Source: a phage. From it: DNA of 64,000 nucleotides. Positions 4,300-22,811 of the stretch are shown piece by piece. The translations under genes and the position numbers were made by a program. The first letter of the stretch is position 1; the number at the start of each line of letters is the position of its first letter. The notes beneath the pieces are model-generated. The model made no database searches, had not been told where the DNA came from, and was given only the letters and a program-made list of their open reading frames with translations. The stretch lies in the NCBI GenBank assembly GCA_032691205.1, contig GCA_032691205.1_4541.1; one strand, given 5' to 3'.

Positions 4300-4320
4300 A
4301 ATAATAACCTTTTTATTGTT

Positions 4321-4377
4321 GGCGGCACCATTGCCGCCCTACGTGATAAACTATACCAGAATTTTAAACAGTGTCAA
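4321..4377 (-). promoter_or_regulatory. early promoter + 5'-UTR hairpin unit 12
   Basis: Minus strand TTGACA-16nt-TATAGT, hairpin GGCGGCA-CCAT-TGCCGCC. Confidence 0.6.
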
Positions 4378-4724: not shown

Positions 4725-5006
4725 TTAACTATATGATCCACATCGTTCGCAGTAGTGATCATCGTCGTCATCTGCTACCTGGCTGATAAAATGATCTACC
4801 TTTGCTTTCAAATTATTATAATTGCTTTCTACTTCCTGTAGTCGTCGTTGGTAGTATTCCAGGGCTTGCACATAGGCCATTTGTTCGGTTTTAGCTTGCA
4901 CAGCTAAATTCATGCCGCGCGTTTCATCGTATAACCAATAACCATCATTACATTCACTAATAGATAGTGTAGGGCTTAGTTTTTCGTGACGGATAACCTT
5001 GCTCAT
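4725..5006 (-). CDS. hypothetical protein
   Basis: ORF 93 aa. Confidence 0.6.
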   Translation of the reverse strand: MSKVIRHEKLSPTLSISECNDGYWLYDETRGMNLAVQAKTEQMAYVQALEYYQRRLQEVESNYNNLKAKVDHFISQVADDDDDHYCERCGSYS

Positions 5007-5016
5007 GGTGTGCCCC

Positions 5017-5124
5017 TTACTTCAAAATGATTGTTGTGATAACTGCTACGGTGATCCAAAATGGAACGGCTAGAATGATAGCGTTAATCGTTCCAACCGT
5101 CAAACTATTTCCTTTATTAATCAT
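5017..5124 (-). CDS. hypothetical small membrane peptide (about 35 aa)
   Basis: Hand-translated MINKGNSLTVGTINAIILAVPFWITVAVITTIILK; RBS AAGAGG; downstream of unit 14. Confidence 0.35.
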   Translation of the reverse strand: MINKGNSLTVGTINAIILAVPFWITVAVITTIILK

Positions 5125-5153
5125 TGTAAGCCTCTTGCATAATTTCACTATGA

Positions 5154-5210
5154 GCGGCACCATTGCCGCCCTACGTGGTAAATATTATGCCAGTGGCGGC
5201 GATATGTCAA
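5154..5210 (-). promoter_or_regulatory. early promoter + 5'-UTR hairpin unit 14
   Basis: Minus strand TTGACA-17nt-TAATAT, hairpin GCGGCA-CCAT-TGCCGC. Confidence 0.6.
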
Positions 5211-5773
5211 AGACTATTTTCAAAGTTTTCTAGTGCGATCCTTTTTTCTTCCTCTGTCGGCTGATAATCAGGAAAAGCATCAACACACAACAACGGCGGG
5301 ATCTCTTCGTACTCTTCCTCTTCCGTTGTCTCCTCGTCTTCCTCCTGGGCTATGGCTGCAATTTTGGCTAATTTTCTTTCAGCTTGAATCAATTTACCAT
5401 CAAGTACGTTTTTTGCCATGTTGTAAGCGGTCCAGGTGATGCGCTTACTTTCCAGGGCCTGATCGAGCGCCGCTATCTTGCTGGGGTATTCATCCAGGAC
5501 ACGAAAAGCCGGATCAACTTTGTACAAAGGATTATCTTTCGCGCCGTCGCTCGCATCTTCCGCACTGGATAAATCAGCGTTACCATTTGCCAGCCAGCCA
5601 GGGCGCACATAACGCGCTTTTACGTTGCCGTTACTACGTGCTAATCTGTTACCTATTTGCTCACCGCTATATCCCGTGGATTCATCGATAAGATGATCGG
5701 GAATGATGCGCGGATCATCTGCTTCATGTTTTACCCAAGACTGGATCACATATTCGCGGCCCATATTAACCAC
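5207..5773 (-). CDS. hypothetical protein with acidic C-terminal tract
   Basis: ORF 188 aa; EEDEETTEEEEYEE tract. Confidence 0.65.
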   Translation of the reverse strand: MVNMGREYVIQSWVKHEADDPRIIPDHLIDESTGYSGEQIGNRLARSNGNVKARYVRPGWLANGNADLSSAEDASDGAKDNPLYKVDPAFRVLDEYPSKIAALDQALESKRITWTAYNMAKNVLDGKLIQAERKLAKIAAIAQEEDEETTEEEEYEEIPPLLCVDAFPDYQPTEEEKRIALENFENSL

Positions 5774-6397: not shown

Positions 6398-6456
6398 GCG
6401 GGAAACCACTTCCCGCCCTATGTGATACATCTTATCAGGTTGTTGTTTGTTGTCAA
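6398..6456 (-). promoter_or_regulatory. early promoter + 5'-UTR hairpin unit 16
   Basis: Minus strand TTGACA-16nt-TAAGAT, hairpin GCGGGAA-ACCAC-TTCCCGC. Confidence 0.6.
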
Positions 6457-6462
6457 TACTTT

Positions 6463-6660
6463 TTATTCTATCCCTGCAATTTGATTAACGCGCTTGCATT
6501 TTGTAGCGTGCTGGTCTTCTGTAATGACTCCCATTTCTAACAGGGAATCAATGAAAGATAAAACCGTTTCATGATCATCCTGGGGATGACTGAACTCAGT
6601 AAAACCGTTTACTATTACGTTGATTTGTCCAGCTTTCGCCACAATGTGCAATGTTGCCAT
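6463..6660 (-). CDS. hypothetical protein
   Basis: Track ORF 6463..6750 trimmed to the ATG at 6660 downstream of hairpin 17. Confidence 0.55.
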   Translation of the reverse strand: MATLHIVAKAGQINVIVNGFTEFSHPQDDHETVLSFIDSLLEMGVITEDQHATKCKRVNQIAGIE

Positions 6661-6681
6661 GATCTTAACTCCAAATAGTGA

Positions 6682-6738
6682 GCGGCACCATTGCCGCGCT
6701 ACGTGGTAAATATTATGCCGCCACCTGGCGAACGTCAA
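6682..6738 (-). promoter_or_regulatory. early promoter + 5'-UTR hairpin unit 17
   Basis: Minus strand TTGACG-17nt-TAATAT, hairpin GCGGCA-CCAT-TGCCGC. Confidence 0.6.
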
Positions 6739-6847
6739 CCACTTTTTCAATCTTTTTTATTTTCTTTTTGCTTGCTATATATAAAGGAAAGGGTTATCAT
6801 CTTTCTACCGCGCCAACCAGGGCGCACAACAAAGAAAGGGCGACACC

Positions 6848-7114
6848 ATGACAAATACTACATTACATCTTATGCACTCATTGGGCTGGCAAGGCGGCAC
6901 GGTGCACCAGGTAGCAAGCGCAACGGGCTTAAAGGTTGAAACCGTTCTCAACCTATCAGATTATAAGGTCGAGGATAGTTATCAATTACAAAGTTACACG
7001 GGCGGTTTTACCTGGGCGCGTGAAGGTGGGAAAGAAAGCAATATACCACATTGGGGAAAAGGTGATATTCATTTTTGGCTAGGTGTCCTGACCTGGCAAG
7101 AAAACAAAAAATAA
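6848..7114 (+). CDS. hypothetical protein
   Basis: ORF 88 aa on the plus strand with RBS GAAAGGG; first rightward ORF after the leftward array. Confidence 0.4.
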   Translation: MTNTTLHLMHSLGWQGGTVHQVASATGLKVETVLNLSDYKVEDSYQLQSYTGGFTWAREGGKESNIPHWGKGDIHFWLGVLTWQENKK

Positions 7115-7116
7115 TC

Positions 7117-7145
7117 TTGACAAGCCCAGGGATAGGGCTTATACT
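7117..7145 (+). promoter_or_regulatory. sigma70-like promoter firing into the ORF-free region
   Basis: TTGACA (7117-7122), 17 nt, TATACT (7140-7145). Confidence 0.5.
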
Positions 7146-7376
7146 GTTTTACATACAGAAGAGGAAGCGCCACCCCACGGCGTAAAGGCGGGGCTAACAT
7201 ACCAGGGGCACTGGTTGGAAGGTTGATCGCCGGTAGGCTGGGCGCTATATATTTGTAAAGAAATGTAAAGATAAAATAATCGCTTGCTTTCCTGGCTGGA
7301 TCTGTTATTCTTATTACATGGCGAGGGGACACGGGAGCGCGAGACAAACACCGCCCCTGCGCGTCATTCTCTAAAT

Positions 7377-7395
7377 GAGAATGATTATCATTTAC
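7377..7395. promoter_or_regulatory. Fur-box-like palindrome
   Basis: GAGAATGATTATCATTTAC matches 15 of 19 positions of the Fur consensus GATAATGATAATCATTATC; related palindromes at 7365-7383, 7435-7453, 7463-7483. Confidence 0.3.
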
Positions 7396-7502
7396 CTTAT
7401 CAAATAAGAATAAATCTCATTTATAAACTTAAATGCGAATCATTATCATTTGCATTTCCATATGAGAACTCTTCTCATTCTCACCTGCATAAAAATTTTT
7501 GT

Positions 7503-7560
7503 AAACTTTAAATTTTGCTTTTGTACTTTCATTTTTGTAAAAGCAAAAAAACTTTAAATA
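7503..7560. repeat. direct repeat copy A (~58 bp)
   Basis: AAACTTTAAATTTTGCTTTTGTACTTTCATTTTTGTAAA...AAACTTTAAATA; second copy at 7640-7697. Confidence 0.6.
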
Positions 7561-7639
7561 CTGTGGGCGCGCAAAATTTTTAAAATTTTCCTTGACTTTT
7601 GAGTTTTGTTTTGTATCTAACATTTTAAGATAATTTTCC

Positions 7640-7697
7640 TAAACTTTAAATTTTGGTTTTCAACTTTCACTTTTGTAAATTCTTAAAAAGTTTAAAT
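7640..7697. repeat. direct repeat copy B (~58 bp)
   Basis: AAACTTTAAATTTTGGTTTTCAACTTTCACTTTTGTAAA...AAAGTTTAAATA; imperfect copy of 7503-7560. Confidence 0.6.
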
Positions 7698-7840
7698 AAT
7701 TTGAGGGATTTTTGAGATAATGGATAGTGGGAATTTGATATAACCTTTAATCTTATTAGTAGACCTTCAGGAACCCACCTAGATCGAATCCTAGTGATGC
7801 AAACTGAAAAAGATAAGTGTTTGTATAGGACAAAATAACA

Positions 7841-7874
7841 GGCTCTCTACGGTGCTGTAGGAGCCTTATTTCTG
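7841..7874. terminator. bidirectional rho-independent terminator
   Basis: Hairpin GGCTC(T)CTAC-GGTGCT-GTAGGAGCC flanked by T-runs on both strands; just downstream of the NADAR gene stop. Confidence 0.5.
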
Positions 7875-7921
7875 TGCTACAAAGTGACACCTTTGTTCTA
7901 AAAATGAAAAAAGTTAAAATA

Positions 7922-8464
7922 TCACAAATATCGTCTTTGCGGTATTTTGTCTGGGAAAAGTATTTCGATCAGTTTATTATGATATTTGCCTAAAAGATTC
8001 TGCCCTTTCCAGGTGGCAGGGTTTAGCACCCCTGGTTCATACATCCCCATTCCAATTCCGTAAACCTTATCGTAGGGGCTTGCTTCAACAAACGTTTTGT
8101 ATTGGTAAAGGTGTAAGTCTGCATACAAATCTGGATTCTGTACATATTTCAAGCATAAACCTCGCATAACAATACGCTCACGGTTCTCTTCCCATACATT
8201 GTTATCAAAATCCGACACTGCCCTACCCATACGTTTGTAATAAGCTTGGATCTTCTCATCTTTCCGTATCAAACTATGAGTCAGAATAGCCTGTGCAGTG
8301 TTGTGGTCATTAAAAAGCAAAGCTTTACGCCACATCATATATTGTTCGACACAATTAAATGTCTGATTGTAACCTGGTTCGGTTTCTGTAAAGGGTGCAA
8401 TATACCAATTACTAAAAACATCTTTATGTGAAAAGAAGAATACATAATCATCAGTTATTCGCAT
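7922..8464 (-). CDS. NADAR-domain protein (YbiA/DUF1768-like)
   Basis: 180 aa; motifs FFFSHKDVFSNWY, EQYMMWRKALLF, FDNNVWEENRERIVMRGLCLKYVQNPDL, GIGMGMYEPG read as NADAR family. Confidence 0.65.
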   Translation of the reverse strand: MRITDDYVFFFSHKDVFSNWYIAPFTETEPGYNQTFNCVEQYMMWRKALLFNDHNTAQAILTHSLIRKDEKIQAYYKRMGRAVSDFDNNVWEENRERIVMRGLCLKYVQNPDLYADLHLYQYKTFVEASPYDKVYGIGMGMYEPGVLNPATWKGQNLLGKYHNKLIEILFPDKIPQRRYL

Positions 8465-8675
8465 TTTTCATGCCTTCTAAAACTTTAGCTTGCCCGTCTT
8501 GAAAAGCTTTCATCAGAACTATCTTAAGATTGATTTCCAAACGTTCTTCATCCTCTCTATAACAATCCAACACTGCTTTAAGTTCATCATAGTGGTTCAG
8601 AATAGGTTTAAAGATTTCATGGTCTGCTAAACGTGCCATAGTTTCTCCTTTGTTAATCCATCCACCAGTAGCCAT
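8451..8675 (-). CDS. hypothetical protein
   Basis: ORF 74 aa, overlaps neighbours in operon fashion. Confidence 0.5.
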   Translation of the reverse strand: MATGGWINKGETMARLADHEIFKPILNHYDELKAVLDCYREDEERLEINLKIVLMKAFQDGQAKVLEGMKNANN

Positions 8676-9018
8676 AAACTGCGTCTGCGTCGATGAGTTT
8701 GTGTTTGTTGTTCCGCATGTAGTCTAAGATAAGTAGACGTTTATTGTATCTGGAGAGATTATGACCCTCTTTTCCGCCATAGTCAAAATATTTTGCAAGA
8801 TCTTTACACTCAAACAAAATCAGTTCGGGAGTTTCTTCACACTGGTCTGTCTGGTACACTTGACGAATGATCATGTATACATCGTCGTCTTCCGCTAAAT
8901 GCTCTACTGGTCCACATCCAGCAGGAACAAATTCATAGTCCCATCTGATCAGATGTTTCTCTACTGCTTCAAAGAAGTCCATTCTTTCGTTGCGCATAAT
9001 TTGAACGTCAACTAACAT
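8653..9018 (-). CDS. hypothetical protein
   Basis: ORF 121 aa. Confidence 0.55.
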   Translation of the reverse strand: MLVDVQIMRNERMDFFEAVEKHLIRWDYEFVPAGCGPVEHLAEDDDVYMIIRQVYQTDQCEETPELILFECKDLAKYFDYGGKEGHNLSRYNKRLLILDYMRNNKHKLIDADAVYGYWWMD

Positions 9019-10472
9019 GTTTCCTCCTCTCTCATTATTCCACCTGCTTGGTTGATAGCACTTAAGACGATAGCCAAATCCTCGCGCAGGAAGGTTTCAC
9101 TATGACCATCTTTCATGTGCAAGCGTTCTACACAGCCAATAGACGGTAGAATCTGATCAGTCTTAGACTTTAGCTTACTCTCTAACGCCCTGCAAGCTTG
9201 GTAGGACGGCAGATCGAACAATGCTATACGGCGCATAGAGTAATTGTTGTTTGCATTCTGCCCTTTGATCCTGATATCACTGTCCTTTGCAATCCCCAAC
9301 TTGTAAGCTCCCGTGTCTTCTCCGTACTCATCAAGAATAATATTGATGTAAAATTCTTGCATATTTCTGTTCTTACAGCCTGGACAACCTTTCCCATTGA
9401 GATAATCGGTAGGTGTGATCGTTTGCTCTCCATGCTCCCTACATAGATATTTAAACTTGCTGTTATTGCTTACCTTATCAATGAATCCTATAAATTGATC
9501 CCCTCGTTCCTGGCAAGCTTTGGTCATACGGTAGGCCCATTGTTCAGGAGTGTAATGATAATATTTAGAACAACGGCAAGGAAGGCCACCCCTTTTCAAA
9601 TGACTCATCTTCATCTCAAATTTATTATCGCATAAGCCTTCTTTACAATAATCATCCTCTGCACATATAGGACATTCTACAGTCCAGTAAACCTGACGAC
9701 CTAATCTATCTACTCTATCGCTACGATAATATTTACGCTCTACATTATCAGGACAAGCTTTTATAAAATCTTCAACATGTTGTTTATCCTCCATTGTATT
9801 CCTTTGTTTCGTCATTTCTCTTTGACAACTGTAGCATCCAGTCCCTTGTTTAGCACTGTTTACAGTGGTAGTGCACCATTGACCATGAACCTTACACTCA
9901 CAAATCAACTTAGTGCGGGAACCGTTCCACGGTTCCACATAGCCTCTAACAATCCAGGGTTTTTCTTTATAAGCTTCTTCTACTTCTTCTTTATGTTTCT
10001 CCCATGCAATCGATGTTCTTTCTCTGTTTGCTTCTCCCATACACTTCCTGCATCCACTCCCGTTTTTCGCAGAAGATATAGAAGTAGACCTCCACTCCCC
10101 ATGTAAAGCACAACAACAAACCAGTTTAGTATTCCATCCTTTCCATTCTCCGTGCCATCCTGTAACAGTCCAAAACTTACCTGCCTGATTGTAAGTGGTT
10201 TGCACTTCTTCTTTATATTGCTCCCAGGTTTTTGATTTGTTTATAGATACTGCTTTACTTATAATCTCCCTACCGCATTCTGGACAACCCCTCCCTAGTT
10301 TAGCGGTATTTATGCTTGTTGTTTTCCATTCTCCATGCAGAGCACAGATGCATCTAAGTTTAGTTTTATTGCCGTTCCACGGCTCAATATAATCTACAAC
10401 AGTCCAAGACTTACCTTGATAAGCTTGTTTTATATCTGTTTTATATTGTTCCCAAGTGACTATTTTTGGCAC
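9012..10472 (-). CDS. Cys-rich tandem-repeat protein with T5orf172-like (GIY-YIG-related) C-terminal domain
   Basis: 486 aa; four or five ~45-aa modules each with W..GxxTKL.C.C..HGEW...S/T..AK.G.GC..C; C-terminus EFYINIILDEYGE...YKLGIAKDSDIRIKGQ...MRRIALFDLP...HSETF. Confidence 0.6.
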   Translation of the reverse strand: MPKIVTWEQYKTDIKQAYQGKSWTVVDYIEPWNGNKTKLRCICALHGEWKTTSINTAKLGRGCPECGREIISKAVSINKSKTWEQYKEEVQTTYNQAGKFWTVTGWHGEWKGWNTKLVCCCALHGEWRSTSISSAKNGSGCRKCMGEANRERTSIAWEKHKEEVEEAYKEKPWIVRGYVEPWNGSRTKLICECKVHGQWCTTTVNSAKQGTGCYSCQREMTKQRNTMEDKQHVEDFIKACPDNVERKYYRSDRVDRLGRQVYWTVECPICAEDDYCKEGLCDNKFEMKMSHLKRGGLPCRCSKYYHYTPEQWAYRMTKACQERGDQFIGFIDKVSNNSKFKYLCREHGEQTITPTDYLNGKGCPGCKNRNMQEFYINIILDEYGEDTGAYKLGIAKDSDIRIKGQNANNNYSMRRIALFDLPSYQACRALESKLKSKTDQILPSIGCVERLHMKDGHSETFLREDLAIVLSAINQAGGIMREEETC

Positions 10473-10560: not shown

Positions 10561-11700
10561 TTAGAACACGCTACCAAGTGTAGTGGAACGTTGTGTTACA
10601 GGCTCCAGCACCACTCGCAGAGTGTTTCCTGGTGTAGTGCTCATCACCAGAATCTTACCACCTTCAATCAGATCACAAGTTAGACCATCAGCAGTTGCAC
10701 ATAGATCAATATGTGGATCGCCATCTTCGTCTAGGATAACATAACTGTTGGTTTCCATTGCTTCCACTTCATCATCTTTCAAGCTTTGCAGATAGATGTT
10801 CAGGGAACAAGCACCCGACAAAAACTTAGTAGGGGTGAAGTCGTGCCAGTTATTGATCCAATTCACCTTCAAGGTTTTGCCATTAGCTACGATAGAAGCC
10901 ACATTCCATTTAGCATCGTTGCCTAAAGAAATACCCATCATTTCAAGACATTCTTTAAAAGTCATTTTTGGATAGAAATTCAATTCTTCTACAATGCCTT
11001 GAATAACATCGAAAGACAACTCTGTGCTAACATCCCATAAACGTTGGAAGTTATCTACGTGCTTTTTATTTACCAAGTTCTTATCCAAGTAATCTAACAT
11101 GGTTTCACTAGACAGTTTATCGTAATTGAAACTGTAATAGATACGACTAGGACGGTTTACAAAATATTCCGAGATATAGCCACTATTTTTAGTGAGGATG
11201 TAAAGTTTATTCCCACTTCCTGTTCCATCCAACAAGGTCAACAGTGCTTCCTGATCTTCTTTTTTAGCGTACACTTTATCAAATTCGTCAAATAAAACAA
11301 CAGCACGATCTGTAATTTTACTCATAAATTCTAAGAATCCAGCATCTGTGTAAGGTTGTGTAACCAAAATGGTTGGAATACCTAAACCTTCTGTGGACAT
11401 TAAAGACATGCTAATCAGTTTAGCTAACATCGTCTTACCACTGCCCTTTGTCCCTGTCAGTAACACCCCAGTATTTTTACCTTCTTTACTACGACGAGCA
11501 AATGTTTTAATAACATGTGCGGCGCGGTCTTTAGTTTCCCCATAAAGAGTGTTCGGAAGAGAGAAACTTTCGCCACGCACTAAAGAGTAGTTACCGTGCG
11601 GATCGCAGTTGACAACCCAAACTCCAGCAGGAAGTTTATTAGCTTCAACGCCATATTCCTTATTTACAACAGCCACATCTCCAAAAATAGTGTATTTCAT
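10561..11700 (-). CDS. P-loop NTPase (AAA-type ATPase)
   Basis: 379 aa; Walker A GTKGSGKT, Walker B VVLFDEFDKV. Confidence 0.75.
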   Translation of the reverse strand: MKYTIFGDVAVVNKEYGVEANKLPAGVWVVNCDPHGNYSLVRGESFSLPNTLYGETKDRAAHVIKTFARRSKEGKNTGVLLTGTKGSGKTMLAKLISMSLMSTEGLGIPTILVTQPYTDAGFLEFMSKITDRAVVLFDEFDKVYAKKEDQEALLTLLDGTGSGNKLYILTKNSGYISEYFVNRPSRIYYSFNYDKLSSETMLDYLDKNLVNKKHVDNFQRLWDVSTELSFDVIQGIVEELNFYPKMTFKECLEMMGISLGNDAKWNVASIVANGKTLKVNWINNWHDFTPTKFLSGACSLNIYLQSLKDDEVEAMETNSYVILDEDGDPHIDLCATADGLTCDLIEGGKILVMSTTPGNTLRVVLEPVTQRSTTLGSVF

Positions 11701-20180: not shown

Positions 20181-22811
20181 GTGTCTACACAATTGAGTTT
20201 TACACCTACTGATGAACAATACGCTATTGAAAGCGGGTATAAAGAAAATCGTTTCGTTACAATTCAAGCTAAATCTGGATCAGGTAAAACGTCAACACTG
20301 TATATGTTGGCTAATGGCACAAATGATAGTATTCTATATTTGGCATTTAACAAAAGTATGGCAGAGGAAGCTCGACGTAAAATGCCGCCCAATGTTATGT
20401 GCCGAACGCTACATTCAATCTGTTACCAACGTCTTCCACAAAACCTTCGACACAAATTGTCTCGTCCAGAAGGTCAATATGTTAACGTAGCTGGAACTGG
20501 TAGTGAGATTGCCAAAAAATTCAAGATTCAGAATTTGATTGATAAGAATGGTAAAGTGCTACTGACTCGTGCAATGATCGGGTTAATGGTAAAACAAACT
20601 TTAGCTAAATATGAGTTTTCTGACGATGAACATATTGGACATAAACATTTTCCTAAAGTGCATATGTCAGATCTTAAACGTAAGAACATCAACGAACAAA
20701 AACTTATTAACGAAGTTGTTAAATATGCGAAGCAACTTTGGCGTGAGCGTATTGATCCTAAATCAGAAACCATTATGACTCATGACACCTATGTGAAACT
20801 CTTTGAATTGAGTAAAGAAGATTTAGGATACGATATTATTTTTGGAGATGAATTCCAGGATGTTAACCCTGCATTCCTGTCTATCCTTCGCAATGCTAAA
20901 TCGGCTAAACGTATTGTTGTTGTGGGTGATGAGTTTCAGTGTGTGTCTGAGAACACTTTGCTTAACACTGAACAAGGGAAAGTTTTAATGAAAGATCTTC
21001 AGGTCGGGGATAAAGTAGAGTCTTACTTAAACGGTAAAGTGGTGTTTAAAACAGTCACAAACAAAACTTTATCTACTCGAACAGAAGGCAGAAACATTAT
21101 TACATCCAAAGGGAATACGTTAGACATGACTCACAATCATCGCATATGGGCTTCTTCTTACACTTTAAAAGAAGACCAAATGATTGTTTACCTTATGTGG
21201 AGAAAAGATTTAGGCTTTCGTGTAGGAATTACTAACAAATTCGATGATAAAGAAGGTTTTTCTAAACTGGGGCAACGTACACGTTCTGAAAAAGCACAGA
21301 AATTGTGGGTGTTGGATATTGTTGAAAACCGTGAAGCTGCTATGGAAAAAGAAATGGCATACAGTTTACAATATGGCATTCCTACTTGTGTATTTGAAGC
21401 AAGTTCACGCAGTATTAATCAAGAAAGGGTCAATAACATTTTTGAACAATTCGGACAAAACGGTTTTAAACTTTTAGAGGATAAAGATTATCATTTTGAC
21501 TATCCTCATTGGCACAGTATTAACTCTTCAACAGAGAATCGCAAAATGCTTACTGTCTCACTGCGTGCTCAAGGTAAGAAAGGGACTGAGGTGCACTTTG
21601 AATGGACAGAAGAAGAGATGCAGATTTTCGATACTTTGGTAGAGGCAGGTGTTAAGATAAGTAATGCTAAAAATGCAGGTCGTTTCCGTGTTCGTAAGTA
21701 TTTTGCATCTTATAGTGAAGCTTTAACTTTCGCAGAAGAAATTTTAACTATTATTCCTTTCGCCTCTTTGAAAGAGTCTATGGCATCTGTAGATGGTGTA
21801 AAGTATAACTTAATACCTGCCGCAGGATTGTTTAAAGGAATGTCTGTGCTTGTTAAAAACGGGGATACTGTTGTTGCTGAAGAGATTGTAGAGATTGAAG
21901 ATACTCAAGGTTTCTACTATGATGTAGAGATTGAAGATACTGCAAACTTCTTTGGGAATAACATTTTAAGTCATAATTGTATCTACCAGTTCCGAGGTAG
22001 TTCTAATATGATGGTTGAGACTGCCACATATGGGGTTGAGTTGCCTCTGACAGCTTGTTTTCGCTTTGGTCCTAAAGTTGCGGACATTGCTAATGCGATC
22101 CTTTCTGATCGCTCACCTCTGAAGCATCCGCTGGTAGGGAAAGGTTATGATACTGTCACTGGAAGTTTTCATTCTGATGTGGTAGATTATAGTAAACCTT
22201 ACACCATTATTTTCCGTAAGAATTTGACCCTGTTGCTCGAAGCTATGGATCGAATCGCTAACGGAGAAGAGATTATTATTAACGTAGATACCAAAGATTT
22301 CATTTCTATGGTTGATAGTGTTAATGCTTTACGTAGAGGTGATTTGGACAAAGTTAAGCATGAGACAGTTCTACCTTACACTTCTTGGGAAGAATTTGTA
22401 GAGTGTGCAGAATCAGATCCTGATGCAAAACGACTTTTAAACATCGTTGTTTCTGGTAAAGCTAATAATATTGCATACACTTTACGTATGCACCGTAACT
22501 CTCCAACGGCTAAAGTTACTTTAACTACAGCCCACAAATCAAAAGGTTTGGAATGGGATCAGGTTATTGTTGCAAATGACTTCCCTTCTAATTATGATAA
22601 GAAGGGTGAGTGGGTAGGTCTTGAAGAATCAGAACGAAATCTTCTGTATGTTGCACATACACGTTGTATTAAATGTCTGCAATGGAACCGAACTGTTCAA
22701 GAGATTTTAGACATGCATCGTTTAGGTAAGAGCACGGCTCCTGTATCTGAAGAAGATAAGCTTATAGCTGCCCTTGCTCGTAAGATTAATCAAATCAGAG
22801 AGGATCGTTAA
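20181..22811 (+). CDS. UvrD/PcrA-like superfamily 1 DNA helicase, interrupted by an intein
   Basis: GTG start with RBS; Walker A AKSGSGKTST, motif II FGDEFQDVNP, motif III rebuilt as GDEFQ|CIYQFRGS after removing 20940-21977. Confidence 0.8.
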   Translation: MSTQLSFTPTDEQYAIESGYKENRFVTIQAKSGSGKTSTLYMLANGTNDSILYLAFNKSMAEEARRKMPPNVMCRTLHSICYQRLPQNLRHKLSRPEGQYVNVAGTGSEIAKKFKIQNLIDKNGKVLLTRAMIGLMVKQTLAKYEFSDDEHIGHKHFPKVHMSDLKRKNINEQKLINEVVKYAKQLWRERIDPKSETIMTHDTYVKLFELSKEDLGYDIIFGDEFQDVNPAFLSILRNAKSAKRIVVVGDEFQCVSENTLLNTEQGKVLMKDLQVGDKVESYLNGKVVFKTVTNKTLSTRTEGRNIITSKGNTLDMTHNHRIWASSYTLKEDQMIVYLMWRKDLGFRVGITNKFDDKEGFSKLGQRTRSEKAQKLWVLDIVENREAAMEKEMAYSLQYGIPTCVFEASSRSINQERVNNIFEQFGQNGFKLLEDKDYHFDYPHWHSINSSTENRKMLTVSLRAQGKKGTEVHFEWTEEEMQIFDTLVEAGVKISNAKNAGRFRVRKYFASYSEALTFAEEILTIIPFASLKESMASVDGVKYNLIPAAGLFKGMSVLVKNGDTVVAEEIVEIEDTQGFYYDVEIEDTANFFGNNILSHNCIYQFRGSSNMMVETATYGVELPLTACFRFGPKVADIANAILSDRSPLKHPLVGKGYDTVTGSFHSDVVDYSKPYTIIFRKNLTLLLEAMDRIANGEEIIINVDTKDFISMVDSVNALRRGDLDKVKHETVLPYTSWEEFVECAESDPDAKRLLNIVVSGKANNIAYTLRMHRNSPTAKVTLTTAHKSKGLEWDQVIVANDFPSNYDKKGEWVGLEESERNLLYVAHTRCIKCLQWNRTVQEILDMHRLGKSTAPVSEEDKLIAALARKINQIREDR
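20940..21977 (+). mobile_element. intein in the helicase (346 aa)
   Basis: Begins CVSENTLLNTEQGKVLMKDLQVGDKV (block A), TxxH at LDMTHNH, ends FYYDVEIEDTANFFGNNILSHN followed by +1 Cys. Confidence 0.75.

Follow-up and report, generated by a model that had tools for sequence, protein, structure and literature searches.

What does a phage genome do with some 800 bp of DNA that carry no gene? The question is raised by positions 7117-7920 of a 64,000-nucleotide (nt) stretch of phage DNA (GenBank assembly GCA_032691205.1, contig GCA_032691205.1_4541.1; the whole stretch is called the window below), a gene-free segment within a long run of small leftward early genes. An earlier note, made by reading the sequence, had proposed a replication origin with iterons, a non-coding RNA locus or a switch controlled by a host regulator. 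Comparison with related phages shows the region to be a conserved composite of two predicted promoter-driven structured RNAs, phased dyads resembling sites for the host regulator Fur, lineage-specific repeats in DNA that should melt easily, and a terminator, the whole opposing the surrounding transcription. We favour, tentatively, a role as a replication origin activated by transcription, or as an early control hub, with a host factor, probably Fur, as the gate.

A conserved gene-free region

Escherichia phages iGC_PHA_EC001 and nepoznato share 98% identity with the window, and phAPEC8 94%; by its sequence the window belongs to a phAPEC8-like myovirus (genus Phapecoctavirus, subfamily Stephanstirmvirinae). 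From left to right, the region and its left neighbour are laid out as follows.

6848..7114, plus strand: open reading frame (ORF) of 88 amino acids (aa), the sole rightward gene in the leftward early block, directly upstream of P1
7117..7145, plus strand: putative promoter P1, TTGACA-17-TATACT, 11/12 matches, the best promoter site in 6400-8600
7151..7255, plus strand: RNA1, a predicted structured small RNA of ~100 nt
7252..7272, plus strand: A-rich boxes TTTGTAAAG / ATGTAAAG, upstream of the P2 -35 hexamer
7284..7311, plus strand: putative promoter P2, TTGCTT-16-TATTCT, read from sequence, with predicted start at A7318
7318..7371, plus strand: RNA2 core, with a closing helix (AUGGCG with CGUCAU) from the predicted start and an inner hairpin with the conserved loop GAGACAAACAC
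7372..7392, no strand assigned: operator O1, core TGAGAATGATTATCA at 7376-7390, the strongest Fur match (16/19)
7401..7421, no strand assigned: operator O2, core TAAGAATAAATCTCA, the weakest copy (11/19)
7430..7450, no strand assigned: operator O3, core TGCGAATCATTATCA, 14/19, with near-identical copies in T5-like repeat regions
7459..7479, no strand assigned: operator O4, core TGAGAACTCTTCTCA, 13/19
7494..7703, no strand assigned: AT-rich repeat block, with 72-nt direct repeats at 7494-7565 and 7632-7703 (82% identical) and a partial copy at 7582-7615
7840..7866, both strands: bidirectional intrinsic terminator, with fold energies of -16.7 (plus) and -19.6 kcal/mol (minus) and a U-rich tail on either strand

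P2, RNA2 and one of the four palindromes, O2, had escaped the first reading. The claim that 7117-7920 lacks credible coding capacity stood: only short ORFs without family support are present, and where relatives differ in length, they do so within a hairpin and by numbers that are not divisible by three. Annotation of the region is nearly empty in both phAPEC8 and anhysbys; the anhysbys record marks one 'repeat_region', and the phAPEC8 record marks a terminator and a minus-strand hypothetical coding sequence (CDS). The minus-strand CDS phAPEC8_00257, at about 7006-7347 of the window, runs across both RNA1 and the conserved 88-aa ORF of the plus strand, and was probably annotated in error.

The region had been described as lying between two leftward blocks. 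This does not hold on the left, where 6848-7114 is a rightward gene for a real protein (phrog_19316, E=9e-53). Alignment of the 88-aa ORF showed a protein-like pattern of conservation. Its 21 homologue clusters all come from phage-sized contigs; none contains a T5-sized contig, no T5 genome having been searched directly. The AlphaFold2 model of the protein (predicted local distance difference test, pLDDT, 95.3) has five helices, and the protein gave no Pfam match and no significant fold match in the PDB. In Klebsiella phage BIS47 and Serratia phage ChuuTotoro, unrelated ORFs replace the gene while the operators are kept. Between the window and phAPEC8 the 88-aa ORF is 78% identical, whereas the neighbouring RNA1 is 100% identical, a difference that points to mosaicism.

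We used the 804-bp region as query in a sensitive DNA search, which matched 383 phage records. Within Phapecoctavirus the whole region is 97-99% identical. Its left 470 bp are ~78% identical in Justusliebigvirus, and 7148-7460 are ~70-75% identical in rV5-like coliphages and in Vequintavirinae of Klebsiella, Cronobacter, Pectobacterium, Serratia, Enterobacter, Erwinia and Salmonella; T5-like phages are matched as well, through the palindrome block. Wherever a relative is annotated, the match falls within a large gene-free gap between leftward blocks. The position of the module is kept across Stephanstirmvirinae and Vequintavirinae, and gap and parts are conserved in two subfamilies and seven host genera. 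Identities to anhysbys and phAPEC8, respectively, are 99.1% and 100% for RNA1, 100% and 98.1% for RNA2, and 98.7% and 99.1% for the AT-rich repeats, and the flanking ORFs are generally lower (68-99.6%). That the non-coding parts are 98-100% identical and the flanking ORFs generally less so argues for purifying selection on the non-coding sequence. One rV5-like phage, FFH2, lacks RNA1 and carries two tandem promoter-RNA2-operator modules.

On the published genome map of rV5 a grey box is labelled 'non-coding', with no content or function given in the paper (PMC3606486). It appears to be the same large ORF-free gap, map coordinates not having been compared with the gap in FFH2. The literature we searched held no paper describing the region beyond this box, none tying Fur boxes, small RNAs or an origin to rV5-like or phAPEC8-like phages, and none tying Fur boxes to T5-like phages. 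As far as that literature shows, the RNAs, operators and repeats of the region have not been described before. The components are individually of known kinds, and RNA1 and RNA2 belong to no described family.

Two structured RNAs with putative promoters

The strong rightward promoter that had been predicted at 7117-7145 was the top site in our promoter scan, and its hexamers are conserved: the -35 and -10 elements of P1 are fixed in position across genera, and the spacer varies. The spacer (7122-7140) contains a GC hairpin followed by a T-run and was listed as terminator-like. Across genera the sequence of this hairpin changes and its pairing is kept, so the spacer plausibly doubles as the terminator of the 88-aa ORF.

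RNA1 lies in the GC-rich stretch already pointed out in the earlier note, which reaches 59% GC at 7150-7249 compared with 19-26% at 7400-7700. Its predicted parts are a stem A (CGCC/GGCG), a pseudoknot helix (loop CCCC with GGGG), a variable hairpin, an invariant segment AAGGUnnAUCGCCGGnAG and a U-rich end. Homologues were retrieved from viral contigs by a pattern of the invariant 3' segment (AAGGTNNATCGCCGGNAG), which gave about 30 true ones, and 29 distinct homologues were aligned. Over these 29 sequences the variable hairpin shows compensatory changes at five of its seven pairs, and the loop of stem A pairs with the downstream run as CCCC/GGGG, CCAA/UUGG, CCAG/CUGG or CCAU/AUGG. Judged by this pattern of covariation, RNA1 is an H-type pseudoknot. 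In the specified structure 91.7% of cells are paired, and eight pairs have changes on both sides; the observed values were reached by none of 500 shuffles, and slid partners paired at 26-46%. A nested helix CGGCG:CGCCG proposed by RNAalifold was rejected as less supported than stem A and the pseudoknot, since it is broken in copies from Aeromonas phages, which keep stem A by compensatory changes. Folding of 7150-7370 as a single sequence was uninformative (z=0.37), the structure being visible only by comparison.

RNA1 also occurs in four Aeromonas phage genomes (2L372D, 4L372D and relatives), which are unrelated phages; there it has its own TTGCTT-17-TATAAT promoter and its own terminator. A covariance model (R1) found one copy in the window, at 108.9 bits, and scored the Aeromonas phage copies at 55-76 bits; its hairpin columns were mis-set by two, and it served only as a sequence filter. 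Occurrence on its own in Aeromonas phages suggests that RNA1 acts in trans as a free-standing small RNA, and its sharing with these phages that it probably targets something conserved in Gammaproteobacteria. Within the window, neither the RNA1 3' segment nor the RNA2 loop has an antisense target beyond chance. Among the matches listed in a scan of bacterial genomes for RNA1 there were chance matches and one phage-like 4-kb contig of a metagenome-assembled genome, and no convincing chromosomal homologue. An Rfam covariance search, which had been proposed as a check, matched neither RNA1 nor RNA2 to a family; a permissive Rfam scan of 6500-8500 returned only a chance match to rox2 (E=0.44), and ARAGORN found no tRNA or tmRNA.

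Between the end of RNA1 and the second promoter lie the A-rich boxes. Boxes TTTGTAAAGA and TGTAAAGA are nearly invariant in the multi-genus alignments, and ATGTAAAGA, similar to TTTGTAAAGA, is found upstream of the RNA1 promoter in the Aeromonas phages. From their sequence, the boxes at 7252-7272 look like an UP element or an activator site; TTTGTAAAG boxes are not enriched across the window. In relatives P2 reads TTGCAA, TTGAC or TTGAT with TATATT or GATAAT, at the same distance to the RNA2 helix.

The outer helix of RNA2 carries compensatory G-C to A-U changes, reading AUAGCG with CGCUAU in relatives, and when 16 homologues were folded singly most of them (about 9-11) gave the same architecture. 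The distance from RNA2 to O1 is fixed across genera. A 9-bp hairpin that pairs 7364-7371 with the left half of O1, and has a U-rich run after it, was also listed as terminator-like. Its 5' arm overlaps the 3' strand of the RNA2 closing helix, so two mutually exclusive structures may be possible, a lead that we take up below.

Taken together, two RNAs that appear to be promoter-driven, with structures backed by covariation, give strong support to the non-coding RNA locus that had been one of the original proposals.

At about 4990-5500 of a relative, an IMG/VR contig of 146,850 bp (L026), an ORF, which we read as an HNH-type homing endonuclease from its translated sequence and with no family search, is apparently inserted just after the RNA2 start. 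A complete RNA2-like copy follows the insert, which suggests RNA2 as a homing target.

Fur-like operators, AT-rich repeats and the terminator

The palindromes reported earlier are present and Fur-box-like, but they number four, not three. Their 15-bp cores (7376-7390, 7405-7419, 7434-7448 and 7463-7477) follow an exact 29-bp period; nowhere else in the 64 kb is TGAGAATNATTCTCA matched with at most two mismatches. The period is kept in phages of E. coli, Klebsiella, Cronobacter and Pectobacterium.

As Fur references we used the 19-bp consensus GATAATGATAATCATTATC and the 7-1-7 form TGATAATnATTATCA. Scored against the 19-bp consensus, sites in the window gave 16, 14, 14 and 13 of 19, and O2 gave 11. 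Authentic Fur-controlled regions scored in the same way gave 13 (fepA-fes), 16 (fepD-entS), 15 and 15 (fepB-entC), 17 and 17 (chuA-chuT) and 12 (fhuE). The O1 core, TGAGAATGATTATCA, differs from TGATAATNATTATCA at one position, and around O1 the consensus is matched at 6-bp steps (7371, 7377 and 7383). Searching 5,426 E. coli genomes by BLAST with the operator block gave just three weak matches (E about 4), a number kept low by the sheer size of the database. Two of them are Fur boxes, one upstream of chuT and one upstream of fhuE; the third marks the beginning of a non-coding gap of 860 bp within a prophage. This gap, in E. coli H22 (L013, 1985-2845), is gene-free, lies just upstream of capsid genes and opens with the Fur-box-like sequence TAAATGATAATGAAAATCATTTGCATTT. 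Elsewhere in the window, an isolated 16/19 consensus match at 21480-21498 (GATAAAGATTATCATTTTG) falls inside an 876-aa ORF (20181-22811) and is probably due to chance.

Across 90 distinct sites the motif is aaaTGA(G/T)AATnATT(C/A)TCAtt. At the symmetric positions 4 and 12 the combinations GC (32), GA (24), TC (16) and TA (11) are close to the product of the marginal frequencies. The two positions thus vary independently, which argues for a constraint on each half-site, as for a dimeric DNA-binding protein, and not for an RNA hairpin. From the distribution of the sites, a host factor is the simplest explanation for what would bind them. The idea of a Fur-box switch worked by a host regulator is supported by the sequence, whose match to the consensus is at the level of authentic Fur promoters. 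Against it, the operators do not overlap a promoter, and the only promoter-like matches across them are weak and not conserved.

T5-like phages also carry arrays of the motif, in their untranslated repeat region. The palindrome match of the window to the T5-like phage EC105 (L012) is 85-97% identical over 30-55 nt, and arrays are also present in a second T5-like contig (L011). In both (L012, 2440-2810; L011, 2380-2700), ~350 bp hold arrays of Fur-like palindromes, paired DnaA boxes and a near-perfect LexA box, TACTGTATAAATATACAGTA; if the motifs mean what they resemble, three global regulators of the host would have their sites clustered in the T5-like repeat region, and of the three the paper on that region discusses only DnaA. 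Schickermooser, a phapecoctavirus (L016), has a 329-bp direct terminal repeat (1-329) with two Fur-like palindromes (15/19 and 14/19) at most 280 nt from the physical end. This terminal repeat and its adjoining genes are unmatched in the window, so the genome end lies either at the left edge of the window or beyond it.

To the right of the operators the DNA becomes very poor in GC. Positions 7364-7763 are the lowest-GC 400 nt of the window (24.2%, compared with 31.2% for the next lowest), and the three lowest-GC 100-nt windows all fall within them. The direct repeats noted earlier do exist here; the length of ~58 bp given for them was too short, the actual units measuring 72 nt with a partial third copy. 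The 11-mer AAA(C/G)TTTAAAT occurs in four exact copies (7503, 7549, 7641 and 7687), and all its copies in the window lie in 7503-7697. Other lineages have two or three different direct repeats at the same place. Strong conservation within a genus and replacement by other repeats between lineages is how iterons behave, and we regard the repeats at 7494-7703 as candidate iterons and a candidate DNA-unwinding element.

P1 and P2 face this DNA of 19-26% GC, with no conserved ORF before the terminator. The bidirectional terminator that had been predicted was borne out: a hairpin at 7840-7866 folds on both strands, and a terminator is annotated at the same place in phAPEC8. It closes both the rightward non-coding unit and the leftward NADAR gene.

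Possible functions and the genomic surroundings

How might these parts work together? In the reading we tentatively favour, that of a transcription-activated origin or early control hub, host RNA polymerase would transcribe from P1 and P2 early in infection. RNA1 would act in trans as a free-standing small RNA. RNA2 would be a leader, with read-through to the AT-rich repeats set by the competing hairpin at 7364-7385 and by a dimeric protein, most likely host Fur-Fe, on O1-O4. Read-through transcription would open or prime the AT-rich repeats for the phage replisome, and Fur bound on phage DNA would be titrated off host promoters as genome copies accumulate.

Known origins offer partial parallels. 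The primary origin of T7 consists of the tandem promoters phi1.1A and phi1.1B followed by an AT-rich segment, and oriF and oriG of T4 are R-loop origins. Like these, the region has two tandem promoters that aim into the most AT-rich non-coding DNA; unlike them, its promoters are of the sigma-70 type, its transcripts would start with structured RNAs, and an operator array precedes the AT-rich DNA. Opening of AT-rich DNA by read-through would resemble the T7 phi1.1A/B origin, the R-loops of T4 oriF/oriG, and ColE1 RNA II. The lambda ori has four phased dyad-symmetric iterons beside an AT-rich segment, and the four phased dyads of the region likewise adjoin AT-rich DNA. In contrast to the lambda ori, the region lies outside any initiator gene, no O-like protein was found, its Fur-like site sequence is common to unrelated phages, and its period is 29 bp.

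Several findings weigh against a replication role. The original proposal of an origin with iterons suits the tandem promoters facing the AT-richest DNA with its lineage-specific repeats; there is no skew switch, no DnaA box and no recognisable initiator gene. No DnaA box (TTATCCACA-like, one mismatch or fewer) is present in 7117-7920, and counts across the window are at chance level. The cumulative GC skew has its minimum, and turns, not in the region but at ~14 kb, at the flip in gene orientation; the skew follows gene orientation and is uninformative about the region. The same skew pattern is seen in rV5, where the origin could not be located by skew analysis (PMC3606486). No initiator gene was recognisable; the sole adjacent candidate is the 88-aa protein, which is without relatives in Pfam and the PDB and gives way to other ORFs in some lineages. 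The large ORFs of the window that were checked encode tail and other proteins, replication genes lying outside the window. In favour of a replication role, a T7-like polymerase, a primase-helicase and sigma-70 promoters throughout are described for relatives of rV5, with no mapped origin (PMC3606486).

Other points tell against the reading as a whole. The conserved folds of RNA1 and RNA2 argue for action as RNAs, not as mere primers. The RNA1 copies of the Aeromonas phages come without operators and without AT repeats, and the T5 copies of the palindromes are in the terminal repeat, a long way from the origins mapped in that phage. As regards Fur, its sites do not usually lie, as the operators do, ~55-160 nt past the P2 start and clear of any promoter; positions 4 and 12 favour G/C over the T/A of the Fur consensus; and three environmental relatives (L047, L053 and L071) keep RNA1 and RNA2 and have other repeats in place of the Fur-like sites. 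Thus the sites are like enterobacterial Fur boxes in matching the consensus at the level of fepD-entS, fepB-entC, chuA-chuT, fepA-fes and fhuE and in being matched at 6-bp steps, and unlike them in overlapping no -35 or -10 element, in favouring G/C at positions 4 and 12 and in forming a 29-bp array in a virulent phage.

The alternative that survives best, a real contender though improbable on balance, is a small-RNA locus combined with a Fur decoy and with no part in replication. The RNAs would act in trans in host takeover, anti-defence or protein sponging, the operators would soak up Fur and de-repress iron uptake for the phage, and the AT repeats would be structural or regulatory. That extra copies of a site can soak up Fur is the principle of the Fur titration assay. 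RNA1 fits this alternative in being mobile and self-contained, with its own promoter and terminator, in unrelated Aeromonas phages, and covariation indicates selection on RNA folds. Fur-like sites also occur at places that are not origins (the terminal-repeat region of T5-like phages and the 329-bp terminal repeat of Schickermooser), and operators that overlap no promoter would suit a decoy. On the other hand, a decoy assigns no function to the constant spacing of RNA2 and O1, to the strict phasing at 29 bp or to the strongly conserved, lineage-specific AT repeats; the conserved RNA loops have no antisense target within the window; and four to six sites per genome would make a modest sponge.

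We think it unlikely that a phage-encoded dimeric DNA-binding protein, possibly the 88-aa protein, runs the region as a switch, with O1-O4 controlling P1/P2 read-through or early-to-middle timing and the likeness to Fur sites a coincidence or mimicry. Four phased dyads beside a small divergent gene are a classic operator layout, and the other repeats in L047, L053 and L071 look as if site and protein co-evolve; the preference for G/C at positions 4 and 12 also departs from Fur. Nevertheless, the sites score like genuine Fur boxes, and the 88-aa protein has no match to a DNA-binding family or fold. It would also not be the binding protein common to all carriers of the motif, because T5-like phages share the motif and none of its 21 homologue clusters comes from a T5-sized contig, and because the protein is missing or replaced in BIS47 and ChuuTotoro, which bear the operators.

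Still less probable is a DNA-entry or anchoring element comparable with the injection stop of T5, which would pause the genome after the first 7-14 kb of early genes. Repeat Region 3 of the T5 left terminal repeat is the region of the injection stop signal (Davison, bioRxiv 10.1101/866236); the paper does not mention Fur. Like the region studied here, it is a large untranslated region with GC hairpins, arrays of the same palindrome and direct repeats. It differs in lying within a 10-kb terminal repeat, in having paired DnaA boxes and a LexA-like box, in the spacing of its palindromes (~35 bp) and in lacking RNA1 and RNA2; the 329-bp terminal repeat of Schickermooser is located elsewhere than the hub, unlike T5 Region 3 inside its long terminal repeat. 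The presence of the same palindromes at the T5 injection stop favours an entry function, as does the place of the region in Schickermooser, 13.7 kb from the physical end and behind small sigma-70-driven early genes. The reading is weakened by phiTE, which carries the module and is reported to be circularly permuted, and hence has no fixed distance to an end. Moreover, the distance to the end differs between relatives, the region has no DnaA boxes, and two-step injection is unreported for rV5-like and phAPEC8-like phages.

Finally, an unrecognised coding region or a chance collection of motifs is hardly credible: short hypothetical CDSs are annotated here (phAPEC8_00257, WPEC phages, FFH2 ORF179-181), but the ORFs are short, not conserved and annotated on different strands between records, indels do not come in threes, helix substitutions are compensatory, and the motif clusters are unique in the 64 kb.

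A more specific identity was also considered and rejected. The pseudo-ToxI of phiTE is a non-coding RNA locus of an rV5-like phage whose RNA forms a pseudoknot (PMC3475682), and in both respects the region is similar. The type III antitoxins ToxI, CptI and TenpI, like pseudo-ToxI, consist of head-to-tail repeats of ~34-45 nt, whereas the repeats of the region are 72 nt long and 138 nt apart, with no sequence similarity and no Rfam ToxI match. Identity with pseudo-ToxI is rejected because the escape locus of phiTE lies at a different place.

Returning to the favoured origin or control hub, the Fur-like arrays now number three cases: the hub of phAPEC8/rV5, a terminal repeat in a phapecoctavirus, and, in T5, the terminal-repeat region beside the injection stop. 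We offer as a speculation, and one more doubtful than the hub itself, that unrelated virulent enterobacterial phages carry phased arrays of genuine Fur sites in key non-coding DNA, either to sense the iron status of the host, by gating RNA2 read-through into the origin, or to titrate Fur and thereby reset iron uptake by the host, with RNA1 and RNA2 as two new small-RNA families of the circuit. With such an array present in the T5 injection-stop region, a T5 puzzle of 40 years' standing may be open to a new reading. Since rV5-like and phAPEC8-like phages are widely used as candidates for therapy and biocontrol, the region matters in practice too: it adds two new structured phage RNAs and a concrete candidate origin for genome engineering, and if Fur does bind, iron status would be a predictable variable for phage performance in the gut.

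The surroundings of the region yielded some further observations. On its right, the gene at 7922-8464 (minus strand) encodes a NADAR-domain protein (Pfam, 7.8e-36), named 'GTP cyclohydrolase II', 'YbiA-like N-glycosidase' or hypothetical protein in different records. Farther into this early block, 9012-10472 and 10561-11700 (both minus strand) encode a protein with three CapR-homology domains and an AAA/STAND-like ATPase; BASEL names the homologue of the latter an FtsH-like protease.

A sigma-70 promoter precedes each of the small early genes (for example, at 2950-2979, 4316-4345, 5151-5177 and 6678-6705 on the minus strand). Directly after the -10 box, these promoters carry a near-identical element, ACGTAGGGCGGCAATGGTGCCGCTCA, with a GCGGCA/UGCCGC hairpin. 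The elements are labelled 'PHIRE promoters' in phAPEC8; from their position and pairing they look more like a conserved 5'-leader stem-loop of early transcripts, for stability or for binding of a regulator.

The GenBank record of phage ETEC-TG (OR786310.1) begins inside the region, its position 1 corresponding to about 7750 of the window, and other records, EC152 and ESCO30 among them, begin within a few hundred bases of the homologous regions. These record starts may reflect arbitrary linearisation or an assembly break at the AT-rich repeats.

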